A stretch of 36,012 nt of DNA from a virus (IMGVR_UViG_2654587772_000001); one strand, 5' to 3'. Positions 3,893 to 27,716 are shown, counted from the stretch's first letter. The notes: generated by a model from the letters alone, not told the origin. Numbers and translations are program-made.

Positions 3893-4164
3893 GTATTCGT
3901 ATTGAAATTGGCGAACGTTATGTCGTTACCAGTGACAGCTTTCAGTTTATTCTCCACGAGAAAAAGAGAGCGGAAAGCGGTAAAAACGCCGGTCAGGAAT
4001 GGCTGGCGGTGGTTGGTTATTACCCGAAATTAAGCCAGCTCGTTTCCGGCCTGATGCATCACGATATTCTGACCGGAAGCGCAAAATCTTTTGCTGATTT
4101 AAACGCGCAGGTTGAGCAACTCAGCAGGCGTTGTTCAGAGGCTTTTGGCTCACATGGACGTTAA
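3889..4164 (+). CDS. hypothetical early protein (P2 orf83-like)
   Basis: 91-aa ORF, ATGA overlap with the upstream gene; position immediately before A. Confidence 0.6.
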   Translation: MSIRIEIGERYVVTSDSFQFILHEKKRAESGKNAGQEWLAVVGYYPKLSQLVSGLMHHDILTGSAKSFADLNAQVEQLSRRCSEAFGSHGR

Positions 4165-6427
4165 AGCCTCCGGGCGTTTTGTCCCTCCGTCAGCATTTGC
4201 CGCAGGCACCGGTAAGACGTTTACCGGTGCTTATGCATGGAACGCGCCACGCGAGGCCGTCGGGCGCGAAAGACCCCTTACACGTGACGAGATGCGTCAG
4301 GTGCAAGGTGTTTTATCCACGATTAACCGCCTGCCTTACTTTTTGCGTTCGCTGTTTACTTCACGCTATGACTACATCCGGCGCAATAAAAGCCCGGTGC
4401 ACGGGTTTTATTTCCTCACATCCACTTTTCAGCGTCGTTTATGGCCGCGCATTGAGCGCGTGAATCAGCGCCATGAAATGAACACCGACGCGTCGTTGCT
4501 GTTTCTGGCAGAGCGTGACCACTATGCGCGCCTGCCTGGAATGAATGACAAGGAGCTGAAAAAGTTTGCCGCCCGTATCTCATCGCAGCTTTTCATGATG
4601 TATGAGGAACTCTGCGATGCATGGGGTGATGCGCATGGTGAAAAAGAATCGCTGTTTACGGATGAGGCGCAGGCTCACCTCTATGGTCATGTTGCTGGCG
4701 CTGCACGTGCTTTCAATATTTCCCCGCTCTACTGGAAAAAATACCGTAAAGGACAGATGACCACGAGGCAGGCATATTCTGCCATTGCCCGTCTGTTTAA
4801 CGATGAGTGGTGGATTAGTCAGCTTAAAGGCCAGCGTATGCGCTGGCATGAGGCGTTACTGATTGCTGTCGGGGAGGTCAATAAAGACCGTTCTCCTTAT
4901 GCCAGTAAACATGCCATTCGTGATGTGCGTGCGCGCCGCCAGGCAAATCTGGAATTTCTTAAATCGTGTGACCTTGAAAACAGGGAAACCGGCGAGCGCA
5001 TCGACCTTATCAGTAAGGTGATGGGCAGTATTTCTAATCCTGAAATTCGCCGGATGGAGCTGATGAACACCATTGCCGGTATTGAGCGTTACGCCGCCGC
5101 AGAGGGTGATGTGGGGATGTTTATCACGCTGACCGCGCCGTCAAAGTATCACCCGACACGTCAGGTCGGAAAAGGCGAAAGTAAAACCGTTCAGCTTAAT
5201 CACGGCTGGAACGATGAGGCATTTAATCCAAAGGATGCGCAGCGTTATCTCTGCCGTATCTGGAGCCTGATGCGCACGGCATTCAAGGATAATGATTTAC
5301 AGGTCTACGGTTTGCGAGTCGTCGAGCCACACCACGACGGAACGCCGCACTGGCATATGATGCTTTTTTGTCATCCACGCCAGCGTAACCAGATTATCGA
5401 AATCATGCGTCGCTATGCGCTCAAAGAGGATGGCGACGAAAGAGGAGCCGCGCGAAACCGTTTTCAGGCAAAACACCTTAACCGGGGCGGTGCTGCGGGA
5501 TATATCGCGAAATACATTTCAAAAAACATCGACGGCTATGCACTGGATGGTCAGCTCGATAACGACACCGGCAGGCCGCTGAAAGACACTGCAGCGGCTG
5601 TTACCGCATGGGCGTCAACGTGGCGCATTCCGCAATTTAAAACAGTTGGCCTGCCGACAATGGGGGCTTACCGTGAACTACGCAAATTGCCTCGCGGCGT
5701 CAGCATTGCTGATGAGTTTGACGAGCGCGTCGAGGCTGCACGCGCCGCCGCAGACAGTGGTGATTTTGCGTTGTATATCAGCGCGCAGGGTGGGGCAAAT
5801 GTCCCGCGCGATTGTCAGACTGTCAGGGTCGCCCGTAGCCCGTCGGATGACGTTAACGAGTATGAGGAAGAAGTCGAGAGAGTGGTCGGCATTTACGCGC
5901 CGCATCTCGGCGCGCGTCATATTCATATCACCAGAACGACGGACTGGCGCATTGTGCCGAAAGTTCCGGTCGTGGAGCCTTTGACTTTAAAAAGCGGCAT
6001 CGCCGCGCCTCGGAGTCCTGTCAATAACTGTGGAAAACTCACCGGTGGTGATACTTCGTTACCGGCTCCCACACCTTCTGAGCACGCCGCAGCAGTGCTT
6101 AATCTGGTAGATGACGGTGTTATCGAATGGAATGACCAGGAGGTCGTGAGGGCGCTCAGAGGTGCATTAAAACACGGTCTGAGAAGACCAAACCGTCAGC
6201 AAAGAAACGGAAGCCCGTTAAAACCGCATGAAATAGCGCCATCGGCCAGACTGACCCGGTCGGAACGAATGCAAATTACCCGTATCCGCGTTGACCTTGC
6301 TCAGAACGGTATCAGGCCGCAGCGATGGGAGCTTGAGGCGCTGGCGCGTGGTGCAATTGTGAACTATGGCGCAAAAGAATTTCATTACCATGTTCAGAAG
6401 GCGTGGGAAGCATTTTCGAGGTGGTAA
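4154..6427 (+). CDS. A: replication initiation endonuclease A (rolling-circle initiator)
   Basis: Track ORF 4112..6427 starts at TTG; first ATG is 4154 (MDVKASGRFVPP...), about 757 aa; long match to remembered P2 gpA including the HxH metal motif (PHWHMMLF) and the YxxK active-site region (AGYIAKYISK). Confidence 0.9.
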   Translation: MDVKASGRFVPPSAFAAGTGKTFTGAYAWNAPREAVGRERPLTRDEMRQVQGVLSTINRLPYFLRSLFTSRYDYIRRNKSPVHGFYFLTSTFQRRLWPRIERVNQRHEMNTDASLLFLAERDHYARLPGMNDKELKKFAARISSQLFMMYEELCDAWGDAHGEKESLFTDEAQAHLYGHVAGAARAFNISPLYWKKYRKGQMTTRQAYSAIARLFNDEWWISQLKGQRMRWHEALLIAVGEVNKDRSPYASKHAIRDVRARRQANLEFLKSCDLENRETGERIDLISKVMGSISNPEIRRMELMNTIAGIERYAAAEGDVGMFITLTAPSKYHPTRQVGKGESKTVQLNHGWNDEAFNPKDAQRYLCRIWSLMRTAFKDNDLQVYGLRVVEPHHDGTPHWHMMLFCHPRQRNQIIEIMRRYALKEDGDERGAARNRFQAKHLNRGGAAGYIAKYISKNIDGYALDGQLDNDTGRPLKDTAAAVTAWASTWRIPQFKTVGLPTMGAYRELRKLPRGVSIADEFDERVEAARAAADSGDFALYISAQGGANVPRDCQTVRVARSPSDDVNEYEEEVERVVGIYAPHLGARHIHITRTTDWRIVPKVPVVEPLTLKSGIAAPRSPVNNCGKLTGGDTSLPAPTPSEHAAAVLNLVDDGVIEWNDQEVVRALRGALKHGLRRPNRQQRNGSPLKPHEIAPSARLTRSERMQITRIRVDLAQNGIRPQRWELEALARGAIVNYGAKEFHYHVQKAWEAFSRW

Positions 6428-6537
6428 TCTAAATATGAAAAATCTGCACACCGAAACACTCTTGTAGGTTGATAATTTGCAAACTAGGTGGATTTACTCT
6501 TTGATGTGTAAGAAGTTATACTACAAAAAATTGATTT

Positions 6538-7458
6538 ATGGGCTTGGCGATGTATAACGATCCTTATAGTGACCCAAAAGCGTGGGAATCATATTTCAAA
6601 AATATTGTTTGGCTACATTATAAGCCTGCTAACTGTTGTGACTTGCCAGATGAGCATGGAGGCGACTTTGGGCTGGAGTGTTACACTCTGAGTGGTCATG
6701 TTTTTCAGTGTTACTTGCCTGAGCAGTCGAGTGATATTGATAAGCTTTATAAAGCGCAACAAAAAAAGATTTATACTGATATAAAAAAGTTTTCTCAGGA
6801 TAACATTAAAGAATTAGAGGAGCTTTTTGGCACATTAAAAATTAGCCGCTGGATATTAGCTACACCATATAATAAATCGGCGAAATTAAGTCAATATTGC
6901 ACAAAAAAATCATTAAAAGTAAGAGAGTTAGGGATTTCTTACGTTGCTGATGATTTTCAAATAGTAGTGCAAACAGATCGAAATTATATAGAAGAAGCGT
7001 TCTTTCTTCGCAAAAATAACTATCAATTAAGCTTTAATATAAATGATGCGACGGCTGAGAATGCTGCTAACTTTATTAGTGAAAATACATCTTTTTTAGA
7101 TAAGCTAAATTTAAAATTACCTAAGATAAATGATGATGTATCTAGGCAGGGTTTATATAGAGAGTTTTTAATACAAAAATATCTTGATTATCAAAACTTG
7201 CTGGATGCTTTGAAGAGAGACTGGGTTGATATCTATGAAATTATCTATAACTGTGTTCAACATAGAGAACGTAATTTGGTAGGTCTCTTTCTTCTTACTT
7301 CATCAGATGCGAAACCATCAGATATAATGAAAGATGAAATCGCTTTGTTAAAGAAATGTATTGAAGAGGAAGTTAGTACGCTTAAACAGGCTGACTTGGA
7401 TAAGATAACATGGGGAGTTATTTCTGATTGGCTTATAAGATGCCCTTTAGATTTTTAG
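6538..7458 (+). CDS. hypothetical protein, gene 1 of the AT-rich cargo operon (candidate effector component)
   Basis: 306-aa ORF in AT-rich DNA at the tin/old position; no motif recognised by eye apart from a Cys/His-rich N-terminal patch (CCDLPDEHGGDFGLECYTLSGHVFQCY); weak RBS. Confidence 0.6.
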   Translation: MGLAMYNDPYSDPKAWESYFKNIVWLHYKPANCCDLPDEHGGDFGLECYTLSGHVFQCYLPEQSSDIDKLYKAQQKKIYTDIKKFSQDNIKELEELFGTLKISRWILATPYNKSAKLSQYCTKKSLKVRELGISYVADDFQIVVQTDRNYIEEAFFLRKNNYQLSFNINDATAENAANFISENTSFLDKLNLKLPKINDDVSRQGLYREFLIQKYLDYQNLLDALKRDWVDIYEIIYNCVQHRERNLVGLFLLTSSDAKPSDIMKDEIALLKKCIEEEVSTLKQADLDKITWGVISDWLIRCPLDF

Positions 7459-7459
7459 A

Positions 7460-7936
7460 ATGGAAAAGCAAATGCATATAACGATAGATGAAATAATAGG
7501 AAGGCCGTTTACGTTTAATAAACGACCTGAACATTTGCCATGTGATATGAGACCATTGTGGCGTTGCAGTTTGTTGCTGATAATATTCCTTGTCACAGGG
7601 AGAGCTGGTTGCTGTTCTTTAAAAAAACTTCATTTAATTAATTGGATGTTAAAGTCAGAGAATAATGAAGCAATGTTTGAATTCTGGCTTTTAAACAAAG
7701 AAGGTTTAAAGCCTGAAGTAAGATTGGATCCAACTTTAGATAGAGCAATACAGCTATTATTAGCAGAGGATTTTATTTTGAGAAATGAACGAGCGTTCAA
7801 AATAAATGAAAAGGGGCTTAAGGTCGCTGAGAAATTGCTTTCTCTTGATGTGTTCAAAGAAGAAAGGTTGGTGCTAAATAAACATAAGGCTGGACTGTCC
7901 GAAACTAACATTAATAAAATATTTCAGGTGGGTTAA
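7460..7936 (+). CDS. hypothetical small protein, gene 2 of the cargo operon (candidate middle/adaptor component)
   Basis: 158-aa ORF; its ATG lies 1 nt after the gene 1 stop and its stop 1 nt before the gene 3 ATG, indicating translational coupling. Confidence 0.55.
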   Translation: MEKQMHITIDEIIGRPFTFNKRPEHLPCDMRPLWRCSLLLIIFLVTGRAGCCSLKKLHLINWMLKSENNEAMFEFWLLNKEGLKPEVRLDPTLDRAIQLLLAEDFILRNERAFKINEKGLKVAEKLLSLDVFKEERLVLNKHKAGLSETNINKIFQVG

Positions 7937-7937
7937 T

Positions 7938-9959
7938 ATGTCGTTGGAAATTATTTCATTGGAGTTAGTAGCAAATACTTCGGATGGGCGTTATGGTGTT
8001 AGTATACCTTTTTCAAATGGCTTGTTTTTATTAAGAGTTGAGAATTCTCATGGTAAATCAACTTGCATGAATGGGATTGCATATGCACTTGGGATGGAAA
8101 AGGCATTAGGTGTCGGTTCTGGAAAAATCCCATTCCCTCCATCTTTGACTAGAGCACTAACGACAAAAGATAATGTTGAAGTTAGTGTAATATCATCTTA
8201 TGTTTTGCTAAAAATAAAGAATCATAAGGGAATAGAAGCATCTTTGAAAAGGAATATTATCGGTCACGATAATAATAATGTTATTTATATAGATGAGAAG
8301 AATAATGTAAAAAGTAAGAGTGGTACTTATTTTTTACATAGAGAGGGCGATACTGAAAGGGAACGTGGTTTCTATAAGTGGTTAGCTGATTTTATAGGTT
8401 GGAGTTTGCCAAATGTTCCAAACCATAATGGGAAGGACACTATTCTTTATCCATCCGTACTTTTCCCTGCATGGTATGTTGAGCAAAAAAAAGGATGGTC
8501 GTCAATTATGGCGACTGTACCAACACAATTTGGAATTAAAGAGCCAAAGAAAAGAGCTCTAGAATTTTTAATGTCTCTTGATGTTAATGATAATATTTTA
8601 TTGCGTAGTTCGTTAAGAAATGAACTTGATATTATTTATCATGATTGGAAGTTAATTAAACACAATGCAGAAGTTATTGCTTCTAAATTGTCGTCAGTTG
8701 TCACAGGGATTCCTGAACAACCAGTGGCAAAATTTGATCATTATAAGATAGATTTGATTATTAAAAATGGTAGCGTCGTTAGATCTATTGTTGATGTTCG
8801 TAATGAACTGGAAAAAGAGTTGCAAGAAATTAAGTTTGACACTCTTGGTGAGCAAGAAGAACAAACTTTACAATTATCAGTGGTTAAGTTATTAGGTCAA
8901 AAAAATGATGAAATTAACTCTCTGGAATTAAAGATTAAAGAGATTTGTGAGCATAGAAGTTATATTCAATATCAAATTCAGGCGACCAAAAACAGATTGT
9001 ATAATCTGTTGGAAGATAAAAGGAAGTATGAAGATTTAAAGAAAATATCATCTTCGGATGCGTATAAGTCAACAGATTTAATGTCAAATATTTGTCCGAC
9101 TTGTGGTGCAAGTTATAATGATAATTTGCTAAGTTTTTCATCGCAAGAAAATCTGATGACATATGAAGATAGTTTGAACTTTATTAAAGAGCAAGTAAAA
9201 GCATTTGAGTTTGTTCTGTCGGATAGTGAAAAGCAATTAAAGCTTAAAGATGTTGAGAGGAGTGATTTAGAGGGGGAAATAGCCAAGATTAGAGTTGATA
9301 TTAATGCATTAAGGGAGTCAAAATATCCCTCAATGGTTGTTCAGGAGGAGTTTCTGAGACGTAAAATAAACATTGAGAATAAAATTAATGCCATTAACGA
9401 TGGCATTAAAAGTATATTGGACATTAGACTGGAGTTGGATTCATTACACCGTAGATATAAAAAGCTTATCGCGAAAAGAAAAGGGTTGCCAGATAATTTC
9501 TTGTCGCGTAATGATGCCGATAAGTTAAAATTTCTTAATAAAGAAGTCGTTGCACGATTAGAAAAATATAATTTTACAAGTTTTGATTCTAAACTTGTGT
9601 CAATATCAGAAGATAATTACTTACCTACTAGGGAAGGATATGATATAGGTTTTGACACATCAGCTAGTGATGGAATAAGAATCATTTGGGGTTATTTAAT
9701 AAGTTTATTTGTTGTTGGTTCTAAATTTCAAACAAATCACCCTGGATTGATTGTGTTTGATGAGCCTCGTCAACAAGAAGCAAATAAAGTAAGTTTTGCC
9801 GAGTTACTTAAAGATGCTGCAGAAACAACAAAAGGACAAGGGCAGATCATTTTTGCTACATCAGAAGATGAAAATGTCTTAAAAGAGGCATTAGAAGGGT
9901 ATGACTATACAATGATATCCTTTGATAAGAACAATGGGAAATTGTTGAGGAAATTATAA
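7938..9959 (+). CDS. SMC/Rad50-like ABC ATPase with coiled coil and CxxC hook (LmuB/DdmC-like), gene 3 of the cargo operon
   Basis: 673 aa; Walker A VENSHGKST (aa 34-42); long E/K/L-rich heptad-like region aa 280-540; CPTC at aa 386-389 (nt 9093..9104) mid coiled coil; signature-like SASDG and Walker B GLIVFDEP (aa 603-610); SD AGGTGG upstream. Confidence 0.75.
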   Translation: MSLEIISLELVANTSDGRYGVSIPFSNGLFLLRVENSHGKSTCMNGIAYALGMEKALGVGSGKIPFPPSLTRALTTKDNVEVSVISSYVLLKIKNHKGIEASLKRNIIGHDNNNVIYIDEKNNVKSKSGTYFLHREGDTERERGFYKWLADFIGWSLPNVPNHNGKDTILYPSVLFPAWYVEQKKGWSSIMATVPTQFGIKEPKKRALEFLMSLDVNDNILLRSSLRNELDIIYHDWKLIKHNAEVIASKLSSVVTGIPEQPVAKFDHYKIDLIIKNGSVVRSIVDVRNELEKELQEIKFDTLGEQEEQTLQLSVVKLLGQKNDEINSLELKIKEICEHRSYIQYQIQATKNRLYNLLEDKRKYEDLKKISSSDAYKSTDLMSNICPTCGASYNDNLLSFSSQENLMTYEDSLNFIKEQVKAFEFVLSDSEKQLKLKDVERSDLEGEIAKIRVDINALRESKYPSMVVQEEFLRRKINIENKINAINDGIKSILDIRLELDSLHRRYKKLIAKRKGLPDNFLSRNDADKLKFLNKEVVARLEKYNFTSFDSKLVSISEDNYLPTREGYDIGFDTSASDGIRIIWGYLISLFVVGSKFQTNHPGLIVFDEPRQQEANKVSFAELLKDAAETTKGQGQIIFATSEDENVLKEALEGYDYTMISFDKNNGKLLRKL

Positions 9960-10101: not shown

Positions 10102-10243
10102 TGCGCGCTGGCGGTGGTGCTGATTTTATTTTTTCAGCGTCTGAGCGCGTTGTGATGGCGTTTAGATTGTTCGCCGGGGCGTTGGTGTGTATGCGGGCTG
10201 TTTTGTGCGGTGGTGAGCGTGTGAGGGCGTGATGGCGGGGTGT

Positions 10244-10270: not shown

Positions 10271-11305
10271 TCAGCCGTTGTCAGTGTCCAGTGAGTAGTT
10301 TTTAAAGCGGATGACCTCCTGACCGAGCCAGCCGTTTATCTCGCGGATCCTGTCCTGTAACGGGATAAGCTCATTGCGGACAAAGACCTTTGCCACTTTC
10401 TCTATATCACCCAGCGATCCGACGTTCTCCGGCTTGCCACCCATCAACTGAAAGGGGATGCGGTGCGCGTCCAGCAGGTCAGCGGCGCTGGCTTTTTTGA
10501 TATTAAAAAAATCGTCCTTCGTCGCCACTTCACTGAGGGGGATAATTTTAATGCCGTCGGCTTTCCCCTGTGGGGCATAGAGAAACAGATTTTTAAAGTT
10601 ATTGCGGCCTTTCGACTTAACCATGTTTTCGCGTAGCATTTCGATATCGTTGCGATCCTGCACGGCATCAGTGACGTACATGATGTATCCGGCATGTGCG
10701 CCATTTTCGTAATACTTGCGGCGGAACAGCGTGGCCGACTCATTCAGCCAGGCAGAATTAAGGGCGCTGAGATATTCCGGCAGACCGTACAGCTCCTGAT
10801 TAATATCCGGCTCCAGCAGGTGAAACACGGAGCCGGGCGCGAAGGCTGTCGGCTCGTTGAAGGACGGCACCCACCAGTAAACATCCTCTTCCACACCACG
10901 GCGGGTATATTTTGCCGGTGAGGTTTCCAGTCTGATGACCTTACCGGTGGTACTGTAACGCTTTTCCAGAAACGCATTGCCGAACACCAGAAAATCCAGC
11001 ACAAAGCGGCTGAAATCCTGCTGGGAAAGCCACGGATGCGGAATAAACGTTGAAGCCAGAATATTGCGTTTGACGTAAATCGGTGAGCTGTGATGCACGG
11101 CAGTACGCAGGCTTTTTGCCAGACCGGTAAAGCTGACCGGCGGCTCATACCATCTGCCGTTACTGATACATTCGACGTAATCCAGAATGTCACGGCGGTC
11201 GAGCACCGGAACCGGCTCACCAAAGGTGAATGCCTCCATTTTCGGGGCGCTGGCGGCCATTGTTTTTACCGCAGGTTGCGGTGTTTTCCCTTTTTTCTTG
11301 CTCAT
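10271..11305 (-). CDS. Q: portal protein Q
   Basis: 344-aa ORF matching P2 gpQ in length and sequence; ATGA overlap with the P stop. Confidence 0.95.
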   Translation of the reverse strand: MSKKKGKTPQPAVKTMAASAPKMEAFTFGEPVPVLDRRDILDYVECISNGRWYEPPVSFTGLAKSLRTAVHHSSPIYVKRNILASTFIPHPWLSQQDFSRFVLDFLVFGNAFLEKRYSTTGKVIRLETSPAKYTRRGVEEDVYWWVPSFNEPTAFAPGSVFHLLEPDINQELYGLPEYLSALNSAWLNESATLFRRKYYENGAHAGYIMYVTDAVQDRNDIEMLRENMVKSKGRNNFKNLFLYAPQGKADGIKIIPLSEVATKDDFFNIKKASAADLLDAHRIPFQLMGGKPENVGSLGDIEKVAKVFVRNELIPLQDRIREINGWLGQEVIRFKNYSLDTDNG

Positions 11306-13077
11306 CAGTAAAACTCCAGAATGGTGGATGTCAGCGGGGTGCTGATACCGGCGGTGAGTGGCTCATTTAACAGGGCATGCATGGTCGCCCAGGCGAGGTC
11401 GGCGTGGCTGGCTTCCTCGCTGCGGCTGGCCTCATAGGTGGCGCTGCGTCCGCTGCTGGTCATGGTCTTGCGGATAGCCATAAACGAGCTGGTGATGTCG
11501 GTGGCGCTGATGTCATATTCCAGACAGCCACGGCGGATAACGTCTTTTGCCTTGAGCACCATTGCGGTTTTCATTTCTGGCGTGTAGCGGATATCGCGCG
11601 CGGCGGGATAGAACGAGCGCACGAGCTGGAACACGCCGACACCGAGGCCGGTGGCATCAATTCCGATGTATTCGACGTTGTATTTTTCGGTGAGTTTGCG
11701 GATGGATTCCGCCTGGGTGGCAAAGTCCATGCCTTTCCACTGGTGACGCTCAAGTATTCTGAATTTGCCACCGGCCACCACCGGCGGTGCCAGTACCACG
11801 CATCCGGCGCTGTCGCCACGGTGTGACGGGTCGTAACCAATCCATACCGGGCGGGAGCCGAACGGATTGGCGGCAAACGGCGCATAGTCTTCCCATTCTT
11901 CCAGCGTGTCGACCATGCAGCGTTGCAGCTCCCCGAACGGGAACACCGATGCCTTGTCGTCAACAAATTCACACATGAACAGGTTTTTAAAATCGTCGGC
12001 GCTGTTTTCGCGTTTGAGCTGCTCAATGTCGAACAACGTGCAGCCGCCTTTCAGGGCGTCCTCAATGGTGACAATCTGCCGCCACTGACCGTCCGCACAG
12101 AGAAGCCCACCGGCAAGGGCGTTATGACTGACGTCGATTTCCACGCGTTCAGCGGCGCTGGCGCGTCCCCGGTTGAACAGTTCACCCGACCAGAACGGGT
12201 AGGCGTCGTGCGCCAGCGTGGACGGGGTGGAGAAATAGGTCGAGCGCAGGTGACTCTGTGAGGCCATACCTGATGCCACCTTACGCAGTACCTGAAAATT
12301 CGGGATCCAGAAAATCTCGTCGACGTACAGGTCGCCGTTATGGCTCTGTGCGGTGTTGGAGTTGGTGCCGAGAAAAATCAGTTTTGCGCCGTTATTGCCA
12401 AGAACAATCGGGTCACCGGTCAGGTCAACGTCAACCAGACGGGCAAAGGCGATGATGTATTCACGGAATACATACGCCTGCGTTTTACTGGCCGACAGAA
12501 AAATCTGGTTATGGCCGGTTTTCAGGGCGCGCAGCAGCGCCTCGCGGGAAAAATAAAACGTCGCGCCAATCTGGCGGGATTTCAGGATATCGCGGATGCG
12601 GTGCTCAAGCCCGGCGCGATACCAGTGCAACTGATAGTCGAAAGACTGCTCAAAGAAAATCTGCTCCAGCTTTTCGATGGCTTCGTCGCTGAAAAAATTC
12701 TTTTTCGGTTTGCGACGTCCGCCTTTGTTGCGGTTAGCGACGTTCGGATTAAGGTCTGCCTCGTTGCCGGTCTGACTGTAACGGTTGACCCGTGCCAGTC
12801 GTTCAATCTGGCGTCCGAGCAGGTCAATTTCCTTGAAGTCACCACCGGTTTTCTGCGGTTTGATGATGAGCTGGGTCAGTCGCGCTTCCAGACTCATTTC
12901 GACACGGCTGATGGGGGCAACGCTGTCCCAGCCGTCGCGCTGTTTCCAGCTCTGCACCGTCGGGCGTTTCATCTGCAACATGGCGGCAATCTGCGGCACG
13001 GAAAACCCCTGCCAGTACAGCAGCGCCGCCTGACGACGCGGGTCGTGTAAAAGAGTGGTGTCTGTGGTGATGGTCAT
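11305..13077 (-). CDS. P: terminase large (ATPase) subunit P
   Basis: Track ORF extends to 13107; first ATG at 13077 gives 590 aa, the P2 gpP length; start reads MTITTDTTLL. Confidence 0.95.
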   Translation of the reverse strand: MTITTDTTLLHDPRRQAALLYWQGFSVPQIAAMLQMKRPTVQSWKQRDGWDSVAPISRVEMSLEARLTQLIIKPQKTGGDFKEIDLLGRQIERLARVNRYSQTGNEADLNPNVANRNKGGRRKPKKNFFSDEAIEKLEQIFFEQSFDYQLHWYRAGLEHRIRDILKSRQIGATFYFSREALLRALKTGHNQIFLSASKTQAYVFREYIIAFARLVDVDLTGDPIVLGNNGAKLIFLGTNSNTAQSHNGDLYVDEIFWIPNFQVLRKVASGMASQSHLRSTYFSTPSTLAHDAYPFWSGELFNRGRASAAERVEIDVSHNALAGGLLCADGQWRQIVTIEDALKGGCTLFDIEQLKRENSADDFKNLFMCEFVDDKASVFPFGELQRCMVDTLEEWEDYAPFAANPFGSRPVWIGYDPSHRGDSAGCVVLAPPVVAGGKFRILERHQWKGMDFATQAESIRKLTEKYNVEYIGIDATGLGVGVFQLVRSFYPAARDIRYTPEMKTAMVLKAKDVIRRGCLEYDISATDITSSFMAIRKTMTSSGRSATYEASRSEEASHADLAWATMHALLNEPLTAGISTPLTSTILEFY

Positions 13078-13145
13078 GAATACCTCGCCGTGATGAATAC
13101 ACGGCAAGGCTACTGAGTCGCGCCCTGCGATTCGCTAAGGTGCTG

Positions 13146-13172: not shown

Positions 13173-13250
13173 TGATGGCGGAGGATGCGCATCGTCGGGA
13201 AACTGATGCCGACATGTGACTCCTCTAATCACTATTCAGGACTCCTGACA

Positions 13251-13865
13251 ATGGCAAAAAAAGTCTCAAAATTCTTTCGTATCGGCGTTGAGGGTGACAC
13301 CTGTGACGGGCGTGTCATCAGTGCGCAGGATATTCAGGAAATGGCTGAAACCTTTGACCCGCGTGTCTACGGTTGCCGCATTAACCTGGAACATCTGCGC
13401 GGCATCCTGCCTGACGGTATTTTTAAACGTTATGGCGATGTGGTCGAACTGAAGGCCGAAAAGATTGATGACGATTCGGCGCTGAAAGGCAAATGGGCGC
13501 TGTTTGCGAAAATCACCCCGACCGATGACCTTATCGCGATGAACAAGGCCGCGCAGAAGGTCTATACCTCAATGGAAATTCAGCCGAACTTTGCCAACAC
13601 CGGCAAATGTTATCTGGTGGGGCTGGCCGTCACCGATGACCCGGCAAGCCTCGGCACGGAATACCTGGAATTCTGCCGCACGGCAAAACACAACCCTCTG
13701 AACCGCTTCAAATTAAGCCCTGAAAACCTGATTTCAGTGGCAACGCCCGTTGAGCTGGAATTTGAAGACCTGCCTGAAACCGTGTTCACCGCCCTGACCG
13801 AAAAGGTGAAATCCATTTTTGGCCGCAAACAGGCCAGCGATGACGCCCTGATGACGAACTGCTGA
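13251..13865 (+). CDS. O: capsid scaffolding protein/protease O (shorter than canonical)
   Basis: First ATG 13251 (MAKKVSKFFRIGVEGDTCDGR...) gives 204 aa; track ORF starts upstream without a plausible start; N-terminus matches P2 gpO. Confidence 0.85.
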   Translation: MAKKVSKFFRIGVEGDTCDGRVISAQDIQEMAETFDPRVYGCRINLEHLRGILPDGIFKRYGDVVELKAEKIDDDSALKGKWALFAKITPTDDLIAMNKAAQKVYTSMEIQPNFANTGKCYLVGLAVTDDPASLGTEYLEFCRTAKHNPLNRFKLSPENLISVATPVELEFEDLPETVFTALTEKVKSIFGRKQASDDALMTNC

Positions 13866-18336: not shown

Positions 18337-18766
18337 TGACGTCACGGTGCTGAAAACTAACCCCGATATGCTGCGGATATTCGTGGATAACGGGAGTATT
18401 GCCTCCACGCTGGCGGAGTCGTTGTCATTCGAAAAGCGTTACACGCTCAATGTCATTGTGACCGACTTTACCGGTGATTTTGACCTGCTCATCGTGCCGG
18501 TGCTGGCGTGGCTGCGGGAAAATCAGCCCGACATCATGACCACCGACGAAGGCCAGAAAAAGGGCTTCACGTTTTATGCAGACATCAACAATGACAGCAG
18601 CTTTGATATCAGCATCAGCCTGATGCTGACCGAGCGCACGCTGGTCAGTGAGGTGGACGGCGCACTGCATGTGAAGAATATCCCGGAACCCACGCCGCCG
18701 GAGCCGGTCACCCGCCCGATGGAGCTTTATATCAATGGTGAACTGGTGAGCAAGTGGGATGAATGA
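18299..18766 (+). CDS. R: tail completion protein R
   Basis: 155-aa ORF; P2 gpR length and position. Confidence 0.85.
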   Translation: MLKPDSLRRALTDDVTVLKTNPDMLRIFVDNGSIASTLAESLSFEKRYTLNVIVTDFTGDFDLLIVPVLAWLRENQPDIMTTDEGQKKGFTFYADINNDSSFDISISLMLTERTLVSEVDGALHVKNIPEPTPPEPVTRPMELYINGELVSKWDE

Positions 18767-19220
18767 GTTTAAGCGTTTTGAAGACCGGCTGACCGGACTG
18801 ATTGAGTCGCTGTCACCGTCAGGGCGTCGTCGACTGGCGGTAGATATTGCGAAGAAGCTGCGCCAGCGCCAGCAGCAGCGAATTAAATTACAAAAAGCCC
18901 CGGATGGTACGCCGTATGTACCGAGAAAAAACCAACCAGTACGAAATAAGAAAGGCCGGATAAAGCGGGAAATGTTTATGAAATTACGCACTAACCGGTT
19001 TATGAAAGCAACCGGTAGCGAGAGTGCCGCGGTGGTGGAGTTTGCCAGCGGAGTGCAACGAATTGCGCGAGTGCATCAGTATGGTTTAAAAGATAGACCC
19101 AATCCCGACGTTAAACCTATTAAGTATGATGAACGTAAACTACTTGGTTTTTCACATAATGATATTGACTTTATAGAATCAACGATCATTAATTGTCTTC
19201 TGGAAAAATCCAGAGAATAG
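18759..19220 (+). CDS. S: tail completion protein S (3' end divergent and AT-rich)
   Basis: 153-aa ORF; N-terminus matches P2 gpS; the last roughly 45 codons are AT-rich. Confidence 0.8.
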   Translation: MNEFKRFEDRLTGLIESLSPSGRRRLAVDIAKKLRQRQQQRIKLQKAPDGTPYVPRKNQPVRNKKGRIKREMFMKLRTNRFMKATGSESAAVVEFASGVQRIARVHQYGLKDRPNPDVKPIKYDERKLLGFSHNDIDFIESTIINCLLEKSRE

Positions 19221-19235
19221 GAAGGTAAAGTACAA

Positions 19236-19775
19236 GTGACATGTAAAAAGAATGAAGGTGATGTTGTAAAGAAAATTGAACTGGTGCTGAAAACAATCGC
19301 GCGGACGGATTCTTATTTAAATTCAGCCAATACTAAATCAACGATATTACTAAGCTTAGCTTCAGCTGTAATTGTTGCTATTATAGCAAATTTTGACAAA
19401 GTTATATGTCTGGTAGATGTGGATAGTGATAGGATTTTTCTCTCTCTTTTATTGATTGTAATAGTTGGGTTATTGGTGATCTCTTTGTTATTTTCTCTAA
19501 AAGGTGTTACTCCAAATATCTCTAAGAGTGATAAGGAGAATACTTTTTCATTTGTTGATATATCAAGTTATTATAGTAGTCTTGATTGCTATTCTAGTAG
19601 TTTTAAGTCAGTGAGTGATCTGGAGTTGTTGGAGCAGTTAATTGCATTGAATTATACTCTTTCCAGAGCATTAACTAGCAAATATGAGATGCAAATCATA
19701 GCCATTGACTTTATAAAAATGGCTGTTTATGTGCTTTGTTTTTTAATATATGTGGTTGCTTTATCTAATTGGTGA
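19236..19775 (+). CDS. small membrane protein with 3 predicted TM helices (candidate membrane effector, SLATT/PycTM-like)
   Basis: 179-aa ORF from GTG 19236 (no in-frame ATG until near the end); SD AGGAAGG upstream; hydrophobic stretches STILLSLASAVIVAIIANF, IFLSLLLIVIVGLLVISLLFSL, MAVYVLCFLIYVVALS; AT-rich. Confidence 0.55.
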   Translation: MTCKKNEGDVVKKIELVLKTIARTDSYLNSANTKSTILLSLASAVIVAIIANFDKVICLVDVDSDRIFLSLLLIVIVGLLVISLLFSLKGVTPNISKSDKENTFSFVDISSYYSSLDCYSSSFKSVSDLELLEQLIALNYTLSRALTSKYEMQIIAIDFIKMAVYVLCFLIYVVALSNW

Positions 19776-19785
19776 AGGTTTTTGT

Positions 19786-21138
19786 ATGTCCATAAAGAGT
19801 ATTTATTTAGTATTAGATGAAAGGCTGGAAGAGATAATTTCAAAATCAAAATCGCAATCAGTCCATGATGCTATATTTGAATCAGTGGATAATACACAGT
19901 TGGCCACGGAGAGCTTAAGTAAATCTTCTGGTTTCGTAAGAAGTTCTATTTCATTGAAAAAAGATGTAGGTGGAGCTGATGTTCAAAGTTATCAGGTGAA
20001 AGATATTGTTAGAAATAAATTTGGCAAGCACGGTCCACTCATGACAAGTTTTGGATGTCATCCGGACTTTAATAAAATGGATGATGGTGAGGTGAGAAAT
20101 GGTTATTCCATTACCATGTTTATGGATATAATCGGCTCAACTAAACTTGGGGTTGTTTTTCCACCAGAAATAGTATTTAGAATCAAAAATGATATTATAA
20201 GATGTGCGATCGAAACAGTGAATGCATTTGATGGTCACGTCCATAGAATTATGGGTGATGCAGTAATGGCATTTTTCCGAAGTAATGACCGATATAAAAA
20301 CAATAAGATCGCAGACAGTGCAATTGATGCAATAAACTGTGCCGTTGTTTTGATTGAAATGTTCAAGGGGGTTGTTATACCTAAATTGAGTGATTTGGGA
20401 GTTGACGAAAACTTAGGAATAAGAATTGGTCTTGACTATGGCCCTCACGAGGAAGTGGTGTGGTCAAAATATGGCTATATGGAAAGTCATGAAGTGACTG
20501 CGACATCTTTTTTTGTTGATGTTGCGGCAAAACTTCAGCAAAAAGCTCCTAAAAACTCAATTATGATAGGTGCAAGTTTTGTAGAGTTATTAGGCCTTGA
20601 TGATGTTCAATTAAAACATAAAATTAACAGAAACAATGGCGTAGAACACAAGGAATTGTATTTAACCCCAAATTATAAAGATGCTTCAGGCAAACCAATA
20701 AATTACAGACAATATGTATTTGATAACGAACGTTATTGTAATTTGCTGCCTATAAATGATGAGGGGGGTAAACTCATTGTAAAAGCAACGCTTAAGAAGA
20801 GTGAAAATGATGTGTCTGATGATGAGTATATTTGTTGTTCTCGAATGATAAAAAAGGGTATGGGTATCTCATTTAAAGGGTACTATTACTCACAAGAACA
20901 GTACTCTAATCCCAGGTTCAAATTTCGTGTCGAAAATACAGGTCCTGATGCAGGTAATGTTGATAATAAGGGTAATCATGAGTCATATGAGGTAGCAAGG
21001 TACACTGGCGAGCGTTATTTTGCTAAGCATTGGGAAGATTGTCATTACAAAGGACTGCATTATATGTTTGTATCTTTTTGGAATGGGGATCAATTAATAG
21101 AAAGGGAGAGGTGTTTTTCAGTTTTTATTAACGATTAA
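19786..21138 (+). CDS. class III nucleotidyl cyclase-domain protein (candidate PycC-like cyclase)
   Basis: 450 aa from ATG 19786 (SD GAAGG 8 nt upstream; track start 19750 overlaps the upstream gene); motifs SITMFMDIIGSTKL (aa 108-121), HRIMGDAVMAFF (153-164), GIRIGLDYGP (211-220), SFFVDVAAKL (241-250) resembling the FxDIxGFT / IGDxxMA / GIHxGxV / VNxAARL blocks of adenylyl/guanylyl-type cyclases. Confidence 0.7.
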   Translation: MSIKSIYLVLDERLEEIISKSKSQSVHDAIFESVDNTQLATESLSKSSGFVRSSISLKKDVGGADVQSYQVKDIVRNKFGKHGPLMTSFGCHPDFNKMDDGEVRNGYSITMFMDIIGSTKLGVVFPPEIVFRIKNDIIRCAIETVNAFDGHVHRIMGDAVMAFFRSNDRYKNNKIADSAIDAINCAVVLIEMFKGVVIPKLSDLGVDENLGIRIGLDYGPHEEVVWSKYGYMESHEVTATSFFVDVAAKLQQKAPKNSIMIGASFVELLGLDDVQLKHKINRNNGVEHKELYLTPNYKDASGKPINYRQYVFDNERYCNLLPINDEGGKLIVKATLKKSENDVSDDEYICCSRMIKKGMGISFKGYYYSQEQYSNPRFKFRVENTGPDAGNVDNKGNHESYEVARYTGERYFAKHWEDCHYKGLHYMFVSFWNGDQLIERERCFSVFIND

Positions 21139-26094: not shown

Positions 26095-26463
26095 TTACTC
26101 ACCAACAGCCCACCAACTGTAATTCATCGATACCGTGTCGCTGGTTGATGACGTTCTGTAAGCAGAATTAAAGCCGGTTAACGTTGGGCCTTCTGCAGTC
26201 ATCACGAACCCTCGCCCAGCGCCTAAAGGCGCACCGCCATCACCAGAATGAGTAAGCATGGCGCAGTCCGCTTTTTTGGGGAAAGGGATGCTGAATGTAA
26301 TTCTCATTGTTTGCGTCGATAATGTCGGCGTAACCGCACCACGACCATATTGCAGGATTTTCCCGTTGGGTAATTTCATCCATCCATCACCACTGGCAAA
26401 AGAGGCCATGTCCGGTATCTGATTTTCCCCTGTCCCCACATCCCGTTTTGCCGCTTCTCTCAA
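26095..26463 (-). CDS. alternative tail fibre C-terminal segment (promoter-less and start-less; would fuse to H after inversion)
   Basis: Open frame on the minus strand running to the crossover site at about 26466 with no credible own start; Gly/Thr/Ser-rich fibre-tip-like sequence. Confidence 0.6.
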   Translation of the reverse strand: MREAAKRDVGTGENQIPDMASFASGDGWMKLPNGKILQYGRGAVTPTLSTQTMRITFSIPFPKKADCAMLTHSGDGGAPLGAGRGFVMTAEGPTLTGFNSAYRTSSTSDTVSMNYSWWAVGE

Positions 26464-26480
26464 ACCAACGTTTTATGGAA
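26455..26480. repeat. invertase crossover site (hix/gix-like), right copy
   Basis: TTCTCTCAAACCAACGTTTTATGGAA; inverted-repeat partner of 24548..24573. Confidence 0.45.
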
Positions 26481-26570
26481 TCGGTTAAATATGATGTTGA
26501 AAGAAGGGAGTGTCCTAGTATTGATTGTTAGATAAAAATGGAAAGTGCTGATTGTAACGGTATATTTTAA

Positions 26571-26598
26571 GATGGTAACACCAAATGGTGCTACCATC
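26571..26598. terminator. candidate bidirectional rho-independent terminator
   Basis: Hairpin GATGGTAACACC-AAAT-GGTGCTACCATC followed by TTTATT on the + strand and by an A/T-rich tract on the - strand; lies just downstream of the minus-strand 105-aa gene. Confidence 0.4.
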
Positions 26599-26606
26599 TT
26601 TATTAG

Positions 26607-26924
26607 TTATCTGTTCCTTCTGAGGATTCCGCTACTCCCTTGTGTTGTAGGGTTTAATTTTTTCCAATAATGATAACCTTGTGATGTAATCCTTAGAGAG
26701 GCAGTATCTACACTCCATCCATCAATACTTTCAGGAGAACCATCGAAGATTACCTTTCCTGTAAGATACCCATCGTCATGCAGAAAGGCGATATATCCAT
26801 AAACTTCTTTTAAATCACCAATTTCATTGACTAGGCGTTCCCACGCTTGAACAGTGATTCTCTCTGGATAGGCTTCGACAAAATATTTCAGTGTGGTAGT
26901 TTTTTTATTGGTATCGATGTTCAT
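26607..26924 (-). CDS. hypothetical protein (AT-rich moron between the invertible segment and the invertase)
   Basis: 105-aa ORF with ATG at 26924 and a good SD (AAGGAAA) upstream on the minus strand; AT-rich; no recognisable motif. Confidence 0.5.
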   Translation of the reverse strand: MNIDTNKKTTTLKYFVEAYPERITVQAWERLVNEIGDLKEVYGYIAFLHDDGYLTGKVIFDGSPESIDGWSVDTASLRITSQGYHYWKKLNPTTQGSSGILRRNR

Positions 26925-27122
26925 CAGATTTTCCTTTTATTGAGGTCAACCTATCTTACCATACTTATTTGTTTCACATGGGAATGCTAAGTGGGCTATG
27001 TATCCACTATCAGTAAATATTCTTATCCAGCAAGATTACTGTAACTGAGAGCTCCATAGCCTTGTCCGCTTGTACATATATAGATAATTCTGTGTCATTA
27101 TTCTGTTTTTATAGGGATTTTT

Positions 27123-27716
27123 ATGCGTATAGGTTATGTTCGTGTATCAACAAATGACCAGAACACGGAATTGCAGCGTAACGCGCTCGAGTGCGCAGGA
27201 TGTGAGCTGATTTTTGAGGATAAAATCAGCGGCACGAAGTCCGACCGACCGGGGCTGAAAAAACTGCTCAGAACATTATCAGCAGGTGACACTCTGGTAG
27301 TCTGGAAGCTGGACAGGCTGGGGCGTAGTATGCGGCATCTGGTCATTCTGGTTGAGGAACTGCGCGAACGCGGCATTAATTTTCGCAGCCTGACAGATGC
27401 TATTGATACCAGCACGCCGATGGGGCGTTTTTTCTTTCATGTGATGGGTGCCCTGGCTGAAATGGAACGAGAACTCATTGTCGAACGGACTCGGGCCGGG
27501 CTGGAAGCGGCCAGAGCCAAAGGTCGTATTGGTGGCAGACGTCCTAAACTCACCACGAGTGAGTGGGAGCAGGTCGGGCGTTTGCTGGCTGCAGGGGAGT
27601 CACGTCAACGCGTGGCACTGATTTTTGATATTGGCCTGTCCACGCTCTATAAAAAATTTCCCTCATCAGCGATAAAGAATAAATTGTGTCATCCCTTAGC
27701 CAACCGGGACAAATAG
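27123..27716 (+). CDS. serine DNA invertase (Hin/Gin/Pin/Cin family)
   Basis: 197-aa ORF; N-terminal resolvase catalytic domain with GYVRVST-DQ (Ser nucleophile), LVVWKLDRLGRS, and a C-terminal HTH; closely resembles Hin/Gin. Confidence 0.9.
   Translation: MRIGYVRVSTNDQNTELQRNALECAGCELIFEDKISGTKSDRPGLKKLLRTLSAGDTLVVWKLDRLGRSMRHLVILVEELRERGINFRSLTDAIDTSTPMGRFFFHVMGALAEMERELIVERTRAGLEAARAKGRIGGRRPKLTTSEWEQVGRLLAAGESRQRVALIFDIGLSTLYKKFPSSAIKNKLCHPLANRDK
27684..27710 (+). promoter_or_regulatory. late-promoter upstream element (candidate PF) TTGTGTCATCCCTTAGCCAACCGGGAC
   Basis: 21/27 identical to the element upstream of O (13146..13172); ends about 66 nt before the FI start; lies inside the 3' end of the invertase gene. 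Confidence 0.45.

Follow-up and report, generated by a model that had tools for sequence, protein, structure and literature searches.

A probable Lamassu effector gene with an Mrr-like domain in the defence hotspot of a P2-like prophage

Which kind of effector, if any, is encoded by the first gene of a three-gene ATP-binding cassette (ABC) operon when its product shows no recognizable catalytic motif? This question was raised by positions 6538-7458 of IMGVR_UViG_2654587772_000001, a viral DNA sequence of 36,012 nucleotides (nt) that we analyzed at full length and refer to as the window. An earlier reading made from the sequence alone (the sequence-only reading) had regarded this gene as the candidate non-ATPase effector of a three-component ABC system, and a Cys/His-rich patch near the N-terminus of its product as a possible metal site or divergent nuclease core. 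Our analysis suggests, with a probability of roughly 0.8, that the gene encodes LmuA of a short-type three-gene Lamassu (ABC-3C) system, bearing an Mrr-like N-terminal domain and acting by the mechanism proposed below.

Assignment of the operon to Lamassu

The plus strand at 6538-7458 contains an open reading frame (ORF) of 306 amino acids (aa) from ATG to stop, as had been claimed. The RefSeq entry WP_024174129 starts at the second in-frame ATG and has 302 aa. Since RefSeq made this choice and most homologues of LmuA are 300-302 aa long, the start at 6550 is likelier than that at 6538; residue numbers below follow the 306-aa numbering. lmuA is a real gene and not a chance ORF. It opens a tight lmuA-lmuC-lmuB operon, entirely on the plus strand (coordinates in Table 1), in the cos-proximal gpA–gpQ hotspot of a P2-like prophage. 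The gap between lmuA and lmuC is 1 nt from the ATG at 7460 and 13 nt from the RefSeq start at 7472, and lmuB starts 1 nt past the lmuC stop codon. The three genes form an island of 32% guanine-cytosine (GC) content in a background of approximately 54%, bordered by the gene of the P2-type replication endonuclease gpA (4112-6427) and by the portal and terminase genes on the opposite strand (10271-13107). The cos-proximal site of P2-like prophages has been described as a defence hotspot (Rousset et al., PMC9122126).

The system was assigned with the defence-specific profiles of PADLOC. Gene 1 matched the LmuA model PDLC03852 over residues 12-299 (E 1.1e-29), gene 2 the LmuC model PDLC03871 (E 2.5e-23), and gene 3 the LmuB model PDLC03863 (E 1.1e-98) as well as nine more LmuB models. 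As in Lamassu, a small middle LmuC lies between lmuA and lmuB, and LmuB is an SMC/Rad50-like protein with Walker A SHGKST (GKS at aa 39-41, with K40), an ABC-signature-like SASDG (575-579), and Walker B LIVFDE (604-609). A single CxxC hook, which the window LmuB also carries (Table 1), is common in Lamassu LmuBs, and the Walker B motif fits the short Lamassu pattern hhhhD[Q/S/T/E] (PMC12663957). The three-gene operon is kept across distant taxa: the trio encodes proteins of 301, 152, and 679 aa on a Shewanella chromosome and of 304, 161, and 673 aa on a Leptolyngbya contig, the LmuA of the latter being 37% identical. The PADLOC calls for all three genes, together with the fold of the LmuA C-terminal domain described below, support the view that gene 1 is the non-ATPase effector of the system.

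Pfam and NCBIfam detected nothing significant for any of the three operon proteins, which accounts for their RefSeq label of hypothetical protein, and Pfam detected nothing for 52 diverse relatives of LmuA. Pfam MC2 did not match the window LmuC. When all PDB chains were compared with LmuA, with its family profile, and with a profile of the N-terminal domain (phmmer/hmmsearch), only coiled-coil noise was obtained. An exhaustive profile search collected 910 cluster representatives of the LmuA family at E ≤ 1e-3 and 467 at E ≤ 1e-30. The conservation values given below refer to 261 family members obtained from word-indexed and exhaustive profile searches. No homology to a non-defence family was found; such homology would have spoken against an effector role.

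An AlphaFold2 model of LmuA, built on an alignment of 49 homologues with a mean predicted local distance difference test score (pLDDT) of 87, consists of two domains (Table 1). The N-terminal domain has the predicted αβββαβ core of PD-(D/E)xK nucleases. A Foldseek comparison of the predicted structure, a check that the sequence-only reading had proposed, ranked the solved LmuA chains 9nxx, 9hr5, and 9ny1 at the top (E 2.4e-4, probability 1.0), and the C-terminal half of the protein shares its fold with the solved LmuA C-terminal domain. Other fold matches were CdiA-CT EC869 (fold-match value 8.8), FokI (8.7), N.BspD6I (8.6), AF1548 (8.3), LlaBIII (8.2), and CdiA-CT Yptb (8.1), with Avs4, Can2, NgoMIV, and HindIII also among them. 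From these matches, the protein ends in a domain of the LmuA type and begins with one of PD-(D/E)xK fold, which corresponds to the Lamassu plan of a variable N-terminal effector domain followed by the LmuA C-terminal domain.

The C-terminal tail (consensus DWLxRCPLDF) includes W298, C302, and P303, which show little or no variation even among proteins of 23% overall identity. The canonical Mrr-CTD6 LmuA with which it was compared lacks an end resembling DWLIRCPLDF. The tail may form an interface with LmuB/LmuC or within an oligomer. Five of the 52 diverse relatives also gave a weak PADLOC match to the Septu PtuB1 model of 'unknown function' (best E 1.5e-5). Because these matches vanish when the N-terminal domains are scanned alone, the similarity to PtuB lies in the helical C-terminal domain, and it may reflect a module common to ATPase-partnered defence effectors.

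The N-terminal domain and its putative active site

The Cys/His-rich patch, CCDLPDEHGGDFGLECYTLSGHVFQCY, was found as quoted at aa 33-59 of LmuA (nt 6634-6714) and is the β2-β3 hairpin of the endonuclease fold. The E. coli protein has four Cys and two His inside these 27 residues. Across the family, C33 (Y/F/L, mostly Y), C34 (Q/R/K, mostly Q/R), H40 (H/D/Q/Y), C48 (C or G, also A), and H54 (H/C/I/N) are variable; C58 is Cys in 235 of 261 members (90%) and is replaced by Ala, Ser, or Met. The patch has a different set of conserved residues: G42, D43, and Q57 are kept in 100% of the sequences, G45 is likewise among the invariant residues, and E47 is Glu in 248 and Asp in 13 members. Position 59 is Tyr in 256, Phe in 5, and Lys in none. 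Outside the patch, E17 is Glu in 178 and Gln in 75 members, and the next helix carries K77 (261/261), D81 (258/261), and K84 (259/261).

The relationship of this domain to Mrr was seen in several comparisons. The motif series RLGYG…GTGDGGIDGV…VQAKRW of E. coli Mrr resembles RYG…GDxGIEGF…YQCY of the window LmuA. As a single sequence, E. coli Mrr scored a probability below 1% against the LmuA family profile, and a profile of 120 Mrr homologues, which were of little help at 72% identity or more, gave a 24-column local match that weakly aligned the first part of this series (P 0.007). A bridge was taken from Table S6 of Rousset, which contains a V. campbellii 'Mrr_cat + SMC' system. The LmuA of this system matches PDLC03852 at E 3e-115 and carries Pfam CTD6 (ABC-3C) and a sub-threshold Mrr_cat, while its middle protein matches the LmuC model PDLC03871 at 4e-50 and Pfam MC2. 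E. coli Mrr itself matches PDLC03852 at E 5e-4. These matches indicate that PDLC03852 is a model of Mrr-type LmuA. The N-terminal domain of the window LmuA alone matches this model (E 4e-21), as do the N-terminal domains of 44 of 44 relatives, and 51 of the 52 diverse relatives match it.

A profile-profile alignment with 120 canonical Mrr-CTD6 LmuAs covered 89 columns locally (P 0.0036). It placed W16-E17 of this clade on W6-E7 of the canonical proteins, G42-D43-x-G45 on G31-D32-x-G34, Q57-C58-Y59 on Q56-C57-K58, and D81…K84 on E72…K75, and these canonical residues are 100% kept in that family (n = 120). The patch thereby aligns to GDxGRD…QCK of the canonical Mrr-type LmuAs, with Y59 opposite the invariant K58. 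K77 lies in an 8-residue insertion without counterpart in the canonical proteins. Pfam Mrr_cat (PF04471) gave no match to the window LmuA at E ≤ 1, and for the 52 relatives, scanned at E ≤ 5, it does not occur among the 25 listed families out of 58; the similarity is confined to the two local profile matches.

The features of an Mrr-like PD-(D/E)xK site are present in part. Acidic residues at the start of β2 and a Glu on helix 1 were found (D43, E47, and E17), and (D/E/Q)-x-K with a catalytic Lys on β3 was not, Q57 being invariant and followed by Y59 at +2. Because Y59 occupies the Lys position of β3, we describe the domain as a nuclease fold with a non-canonical site and not as a proven nuclease. 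In the model, D43, E47, Q57, and Y59 would share one face, with E47 opposite Q57 and Y59 opposite G45 beside D43. The alignment suggests that the catalytic or phosphate-binding Lys may have been relocated, Tyr59 replacing it and K77 being newly gained. Alternatively, K77, D81, and K84 could form an interface pairing two nuclease domains, because the helix after β3 of FokI bears the dimer contacts D483 and R487. A contact with DNA is another conceivable role of this helix motif. No HNH, Sir2, TIR, HEPN, or other Pfam/NCBIfam family was detected in LmuA by sequence, in agreement with the sequence-only reading; its statement that a PD-(D/E)xK signature is missing applies to the literal motif only, and the predicted fold is of this kind.

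Proposed mechanism and alternative explanations

In Lamassu systems with a Cap4-type LmuA, an LmuB dimer and LmuC hold one LmuA by its C-terminal domain, with the nuclease monomeric and inactive, and DNA ends are bound by this complex. Once released, LmuA tetramerizes through the C-terminal domain, and two nuclease domains pair and cut with low sequence specificity; LmuA is hyper-toxic when freed by interface mutations, and oligomerization mutants are dead (10.1101/2025.03.14.643221, PMC12663957, 10.1101/2025.06.23.660979). Lamassu systems with other effectors, including the Mrr type, act by abortive infection and require the LmuB ATPase, LmuC, and the effector site (Millman et al., 10.1101/2022.05.11.491447). 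We transferred this mechanism to the window system because the fold of the LmuA C-terminal domain is shared and LmuB and LmuC are present and intact; by analogy, its stoichiometry, trigger, oligomer, and DNA cleavage would be similar. At rest, an LmuB dimer and LmuC would hold one LmuA monomer via the C-terminal domain, and the nuclease domain could not pair. LmuB and LmuC would detect DNA ends or replication intermediates of phages or plasmids and then release LmuA, which would oligomerize via its C-terminal domain, probably into a tetramer. The paired N-terminal domains would cut DNA non-specifically, and the infected cell would be killed or arrested (abortive infection). The non-canonical site keeps E17, D43, E47, and Q57, with Tyr59 in place of the Lys and Lys77 as its putative substitute.

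Several points weigh against this interpretation. No sequence link was detectable to the solved LmuAs or to Pfam CTD6, MC2, and Mrr_cat, and the homology is consequently carried by the PADLOC profile, the folds, and a modest hhalign P value. The Lys of the β3 'QxK' is missing (Y59, or Phe in the 5 members mentioned above), and nuclease activity is not guaranteed for this reason. A relocated Lys would also require K77 to reach the active site. We infer the stoichiometry and the tetramer by transfer, because the solved LmuAs are Cap4-type and have other C-terminal families (CTD7 or CTD12). The exact proteins correspond to system 51 ('AAA_13/DUF3732', 79 occurrences) of the P2-hotspot catalogue of Rousset 2022, where the system is catalogued only and does not belong to the tested set.

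The replacement of the canonical Lys also raises the question of whether LmuA might be a pseudo-nuclease that keeps the fold and DNA binding and has lost catalysis with the change from QCK to QCY. Such a protein could, for example, clamp or occlude DNA or bring in a host nuclease, or it could serve as sensor or decoy instead of killing the cell. The presence of Tyr or Phe at this position in the 261 members and the lack of a Pfam nuclease match for any of the 52 relatives are compatible with this, and a Lamassu clade seemingly without an effector domain has been reported (PMC12663957). However, D43, E47, and Q57, the metal-binding and active-site positions, are kept down to 23% identity and the invariant K77 was gained alongside the loss of the Lys, and such a pattern is typical of a selected active site and not of decay. 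The clade, which counts 467 clusters at E ≤ 1e-30, is also large, and LmuB and LmuC are retained throughout. PD-(D/E)xK enzymes that are active without the Lys exist, for example BamHI (ExE) and BglII (ExQ). We therefore consider a pseudo-nuclease rather unlikely. A further idea is that the active site of this clade (at least 467 clusters at 50% identity) was rebuilt with changed chemistry or target, which would make these proteins mechanistically new Lamassu effectors. In a rebuilt site, the Lys might come in trans and only within the oligomer, as a safety lock, the preferred metal or substrate might differ, or the protein might bind DNA without cleaving it; we regard this idea as doubtful.

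Two other explanations are far less probable. The four Cys and two His of the E. coli protein, together with the frequency of C58, might indicate a Zn or Fe site and, with it, an effector of a new kind. A Cys/His metal module would need at least three to four conserved ligands, but only C58 is common here and C33, C34, H40, C48, and H54 are freely replaced. With fewer than two ligands conserved, a metal centre cannot be a family feature, and what is conserved in the patch belongs to the endonuclease motif. Of the two earlier guesses for the patch, the divergent nuclease core thus agrees with the fold search and the motif alignment, whereas the metal site was dropped. It is just as improbable that the operon serves prophage housekeeping, such as SbcCD/Rad50-like repair, partition, or replication control, with gene 1 as an accessory nuclease. 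LmuB is Rad50/SbcC-like, Lamassu has been proposed to derive from SbcCD (PMC12663957), and about one quarter of P2 hotspots hold partition systems (PMC9122126). Against this, the operon forms an AT-rich accessory island at a validated defence hotspot and has a sparse distribution (see below), its homologues occur on non-P2 chromosomes and plasmids beside other defence-type genes, and all three genes match defence-specific profiles. These considerations leave a Lamassu effector with an Mrr-like domain as the preferred reading.

Distribution, prophage setting and comparison with known systems

The cassette was found in 32 of 5426 complete E. coli genomes (approximately 0.6%), always on the chromosome, at 99.4% identity or more, and flanked by the gpA end. 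No more distant copy was detected at the DNA level beyond these 32, and none was present in 50,697 deposited phage genomes. LmuA homologues are also carried on plasmids of Proteobacteria, Cyanobacteria, Clostridium, Arthrobacter, and Gemmatirosa. Annotation of the locus in the 32 copies gives three or four coding sequences (CDSs) and lists no pseudogene; lmuB is split into two CDSs in two copies (Table 1), by a frameshift or an assembly error, with lmuA and lmuC intact. lmuA as a pseudogene in related prophages would have argued against a functional effector, and an intact CDS of 302 aa was found in all three related E. coli prophage copies that were read directly. The ratio of non-synonymous to synonymous change (dN/dS) among the E. 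coli copies is uninformative: the most divergent ones differ at 3 positions in lmuA and 2 in lmuC, and every change is non-synonymous. The RefSeq annotation of ARL09/232 names LmuC a 'serine/threonine protein kinase', which is probably a mis-annotation. In strain FDAARGOS_1249 (NZ_CP069459.1, 263333-268099), an IS5-family transposase gene has been inserted into the putative promoter region that separates gpA from lmuA, at a site corresponding to approximately 6400-6538 of the window; this insertion could silence the operon or drive it anew.

The prophage carries further features of interest. A second AT-rich island (GC approximately 0.34) at 19236-21138 on the plus strand encodes a Pycsar system and is placed directly after a P2 S-like tail-completion gene (18759-19220); together with the Lamassu operon, the prophage therefore holds two defence cassettes. 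A serine invertase gene (27123-27716; Resolvase and HTH_7, E 4e-52) adjoins two tail-fibre C-terminal fragments on the minus strand within a dip in GC content, and the region 26095-27716 looks like a Gin/Cin-type invertible tail-fibre switch for host range. In the identical ST2747 prophage, RefSeq flags the gpO-like capsid-scaffold gene as incomplete, with its C-terminus missing, and a DUF2732 gene as interrupted by a stop codon. These flags point to a prophage that may be defective yet still carries intact defence cassettes.

Table 1. Coordinates of the genes, domains, motifs, and neighbouring features (window positions unless another sequence is named)
Feature	Position	Strand	Remarks
Candidate sigma-70 promoter	6493..6522	+	TTTACT-18-TATACT; consensus scan only, 9/12 matches; within the 110-base-pair gap after gpA
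lmuA, putative Lamassu effector gene	6550..7458	+	302 aa; ATG 6538 would yield 306 aa
LmuA N-terminal domain (aa 5-146)	6550..6975	+	predicted restriction-endonuclease-like PD-(D/E)xK, Mrr-like fold
Putative active-site hairpin G42-D43-x-G45-x-E47 … Q57-C58-Y59	6661..6714	+	patch of the sequence-only reading
Helix α2 motif K77-I-x-x-D81-x-x-K84	6766..6789	+	from conservation in 261 sequences
LmuA C-terminal domain (aa 147-306)	6976..7455	+	all-helical; putative sequestration/oligomerization
C-terminal tail DWLIRCPLDF (aa 297-306)	7426..7455	+	among the most conserved stretches of LmuA
lmuC, middle component	7472..7936	+	154 aa, RefSeq WP_000548273; alternative ATG 7460 gives 158 aa
lmuB, SMC/Rad50-like ABC ATPase	7938..9959	+	673 aa; PADLOC LmuB
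LmuB zinc hook C-P-T-C (aa 386-389)	9093..9104	+	middle of the coiled coil; regular expression on the translation
Terminator-like hairpin	10105..10120	+	3' of lmuB; pattern scan only
gpO-like capsid-scaffold ORF	13185-13865; 14852-15460 in L001	+	226 aa
PycTM	19236-19775	+	PADLOC E 8.5e-29; Pfam PycTM match too
PycC cyclase	19750-21138	+	PADLOC E 1.6e-128
Tail-fibre C-terminal fragments	26095-26463 (Gp53-like_C); 26607-26924	-	beside the serine invertase gene
Split-lmuB copies	2889-4909 in L007 (E. coli ARL09/232); 1689-3709 in L008 (isolate SY038)		

The assignment proposed here gives three hypothetical proteins of E. coli and of many other phyla a place in Lamassu and names one of them as an effector that can be tested. 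A large LmuA/LmuC clade still goes unrecognized in Pfam, NCBIfam, and RefSeq and is seen only with defence-specific profiles and by comparing folds. The change from QCK to QCY with an inserted invariant Lys also makes this clade well suited to asking how Lamassu restrains a toxic nuclease before it oligomerizes.

Among known systems, the canonical Mrr-type Lamassu (Mrr N-terminal domain–CTD6, MC2, and 3C-ABC) was compared with the window system. PDLC03852 and PDLC03871 match both, and the three-gene order, the two-domain LmuA, and carriage in prophage hotspots are the same; W-E of helix 1, G-D-x-G-x-(D/E), Q-C-x, and (D/E)-x-x-K align. In contrast, pairwise BLASTP of a canonical LmuA with the window LmuA gives nothing, Pfam CTD6, MC2, and Mrr_cat miss the window proteins and the 52 relatives, and the window LmuA is approximately 30-50 aa shorter, with Y59 and the 8-residue insertion containing K77 where the canonical proteins have K58 of QCK. 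When the validated Lamassu-Mrr locus of E. coli SE15 was sought by distant blastn, only the same 32 near-identical copies were detected. The three-gene '3HP' system of P2, validated against P1 (Rousset 2022), was also considered and rejected, the window sequences being absent from the table of tested systems.

Cap4-type Lamassu is represented by DdmABC of V. cholerae (9nxx, 9ny1, 9ny5) and LmuACB of Salmonella enterica (9hr5, 9hqx). These systems share with the window a PD-(D/E)xK domain joined to a helical C-terminal domain, LmuC, and an SMC-like LmuB. The window LmuA is not a DdmA-like protein of the Cap4/DUF4297 type: its N-terminal domain, smaller at approximately 145 aa, has no Pfam match to DUF4297/Cap4 and no sequence or profile match to the LmuA chains of PDB, which it resembles at the fold level only. 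The C-terminal domain is CTD7 in the Cap4-type proteins and belongs to another family here (10.1101/2025.06.23.660979). The Lys of Cap4-type LmuA (K57 or K68) has no positional equivalent in the window protein, and LmuB of V. cholerae lacks the zinc hook found in the window LmuB.

Compared with Mrr, the FokI cleavage domain, BspD6I, LlaBIII, and CdiA-CT EC869, the window LmuA differs in having neither a Pfam Mrr_cat match nor the β3 Lys. Unlike restriction endonucleases, it has no DNA-recognition domain and is instead fused to a Lamassu C-terminal domain, with control by an SMC-like ATPase. Lamassu with an Mrr-type LmuA and the carriage of Lamassu-family systems in P2 hotspots are already known; the sole non-routine element is the remodelled active site, in which QCK is changed to QCY and K77 is inserted.

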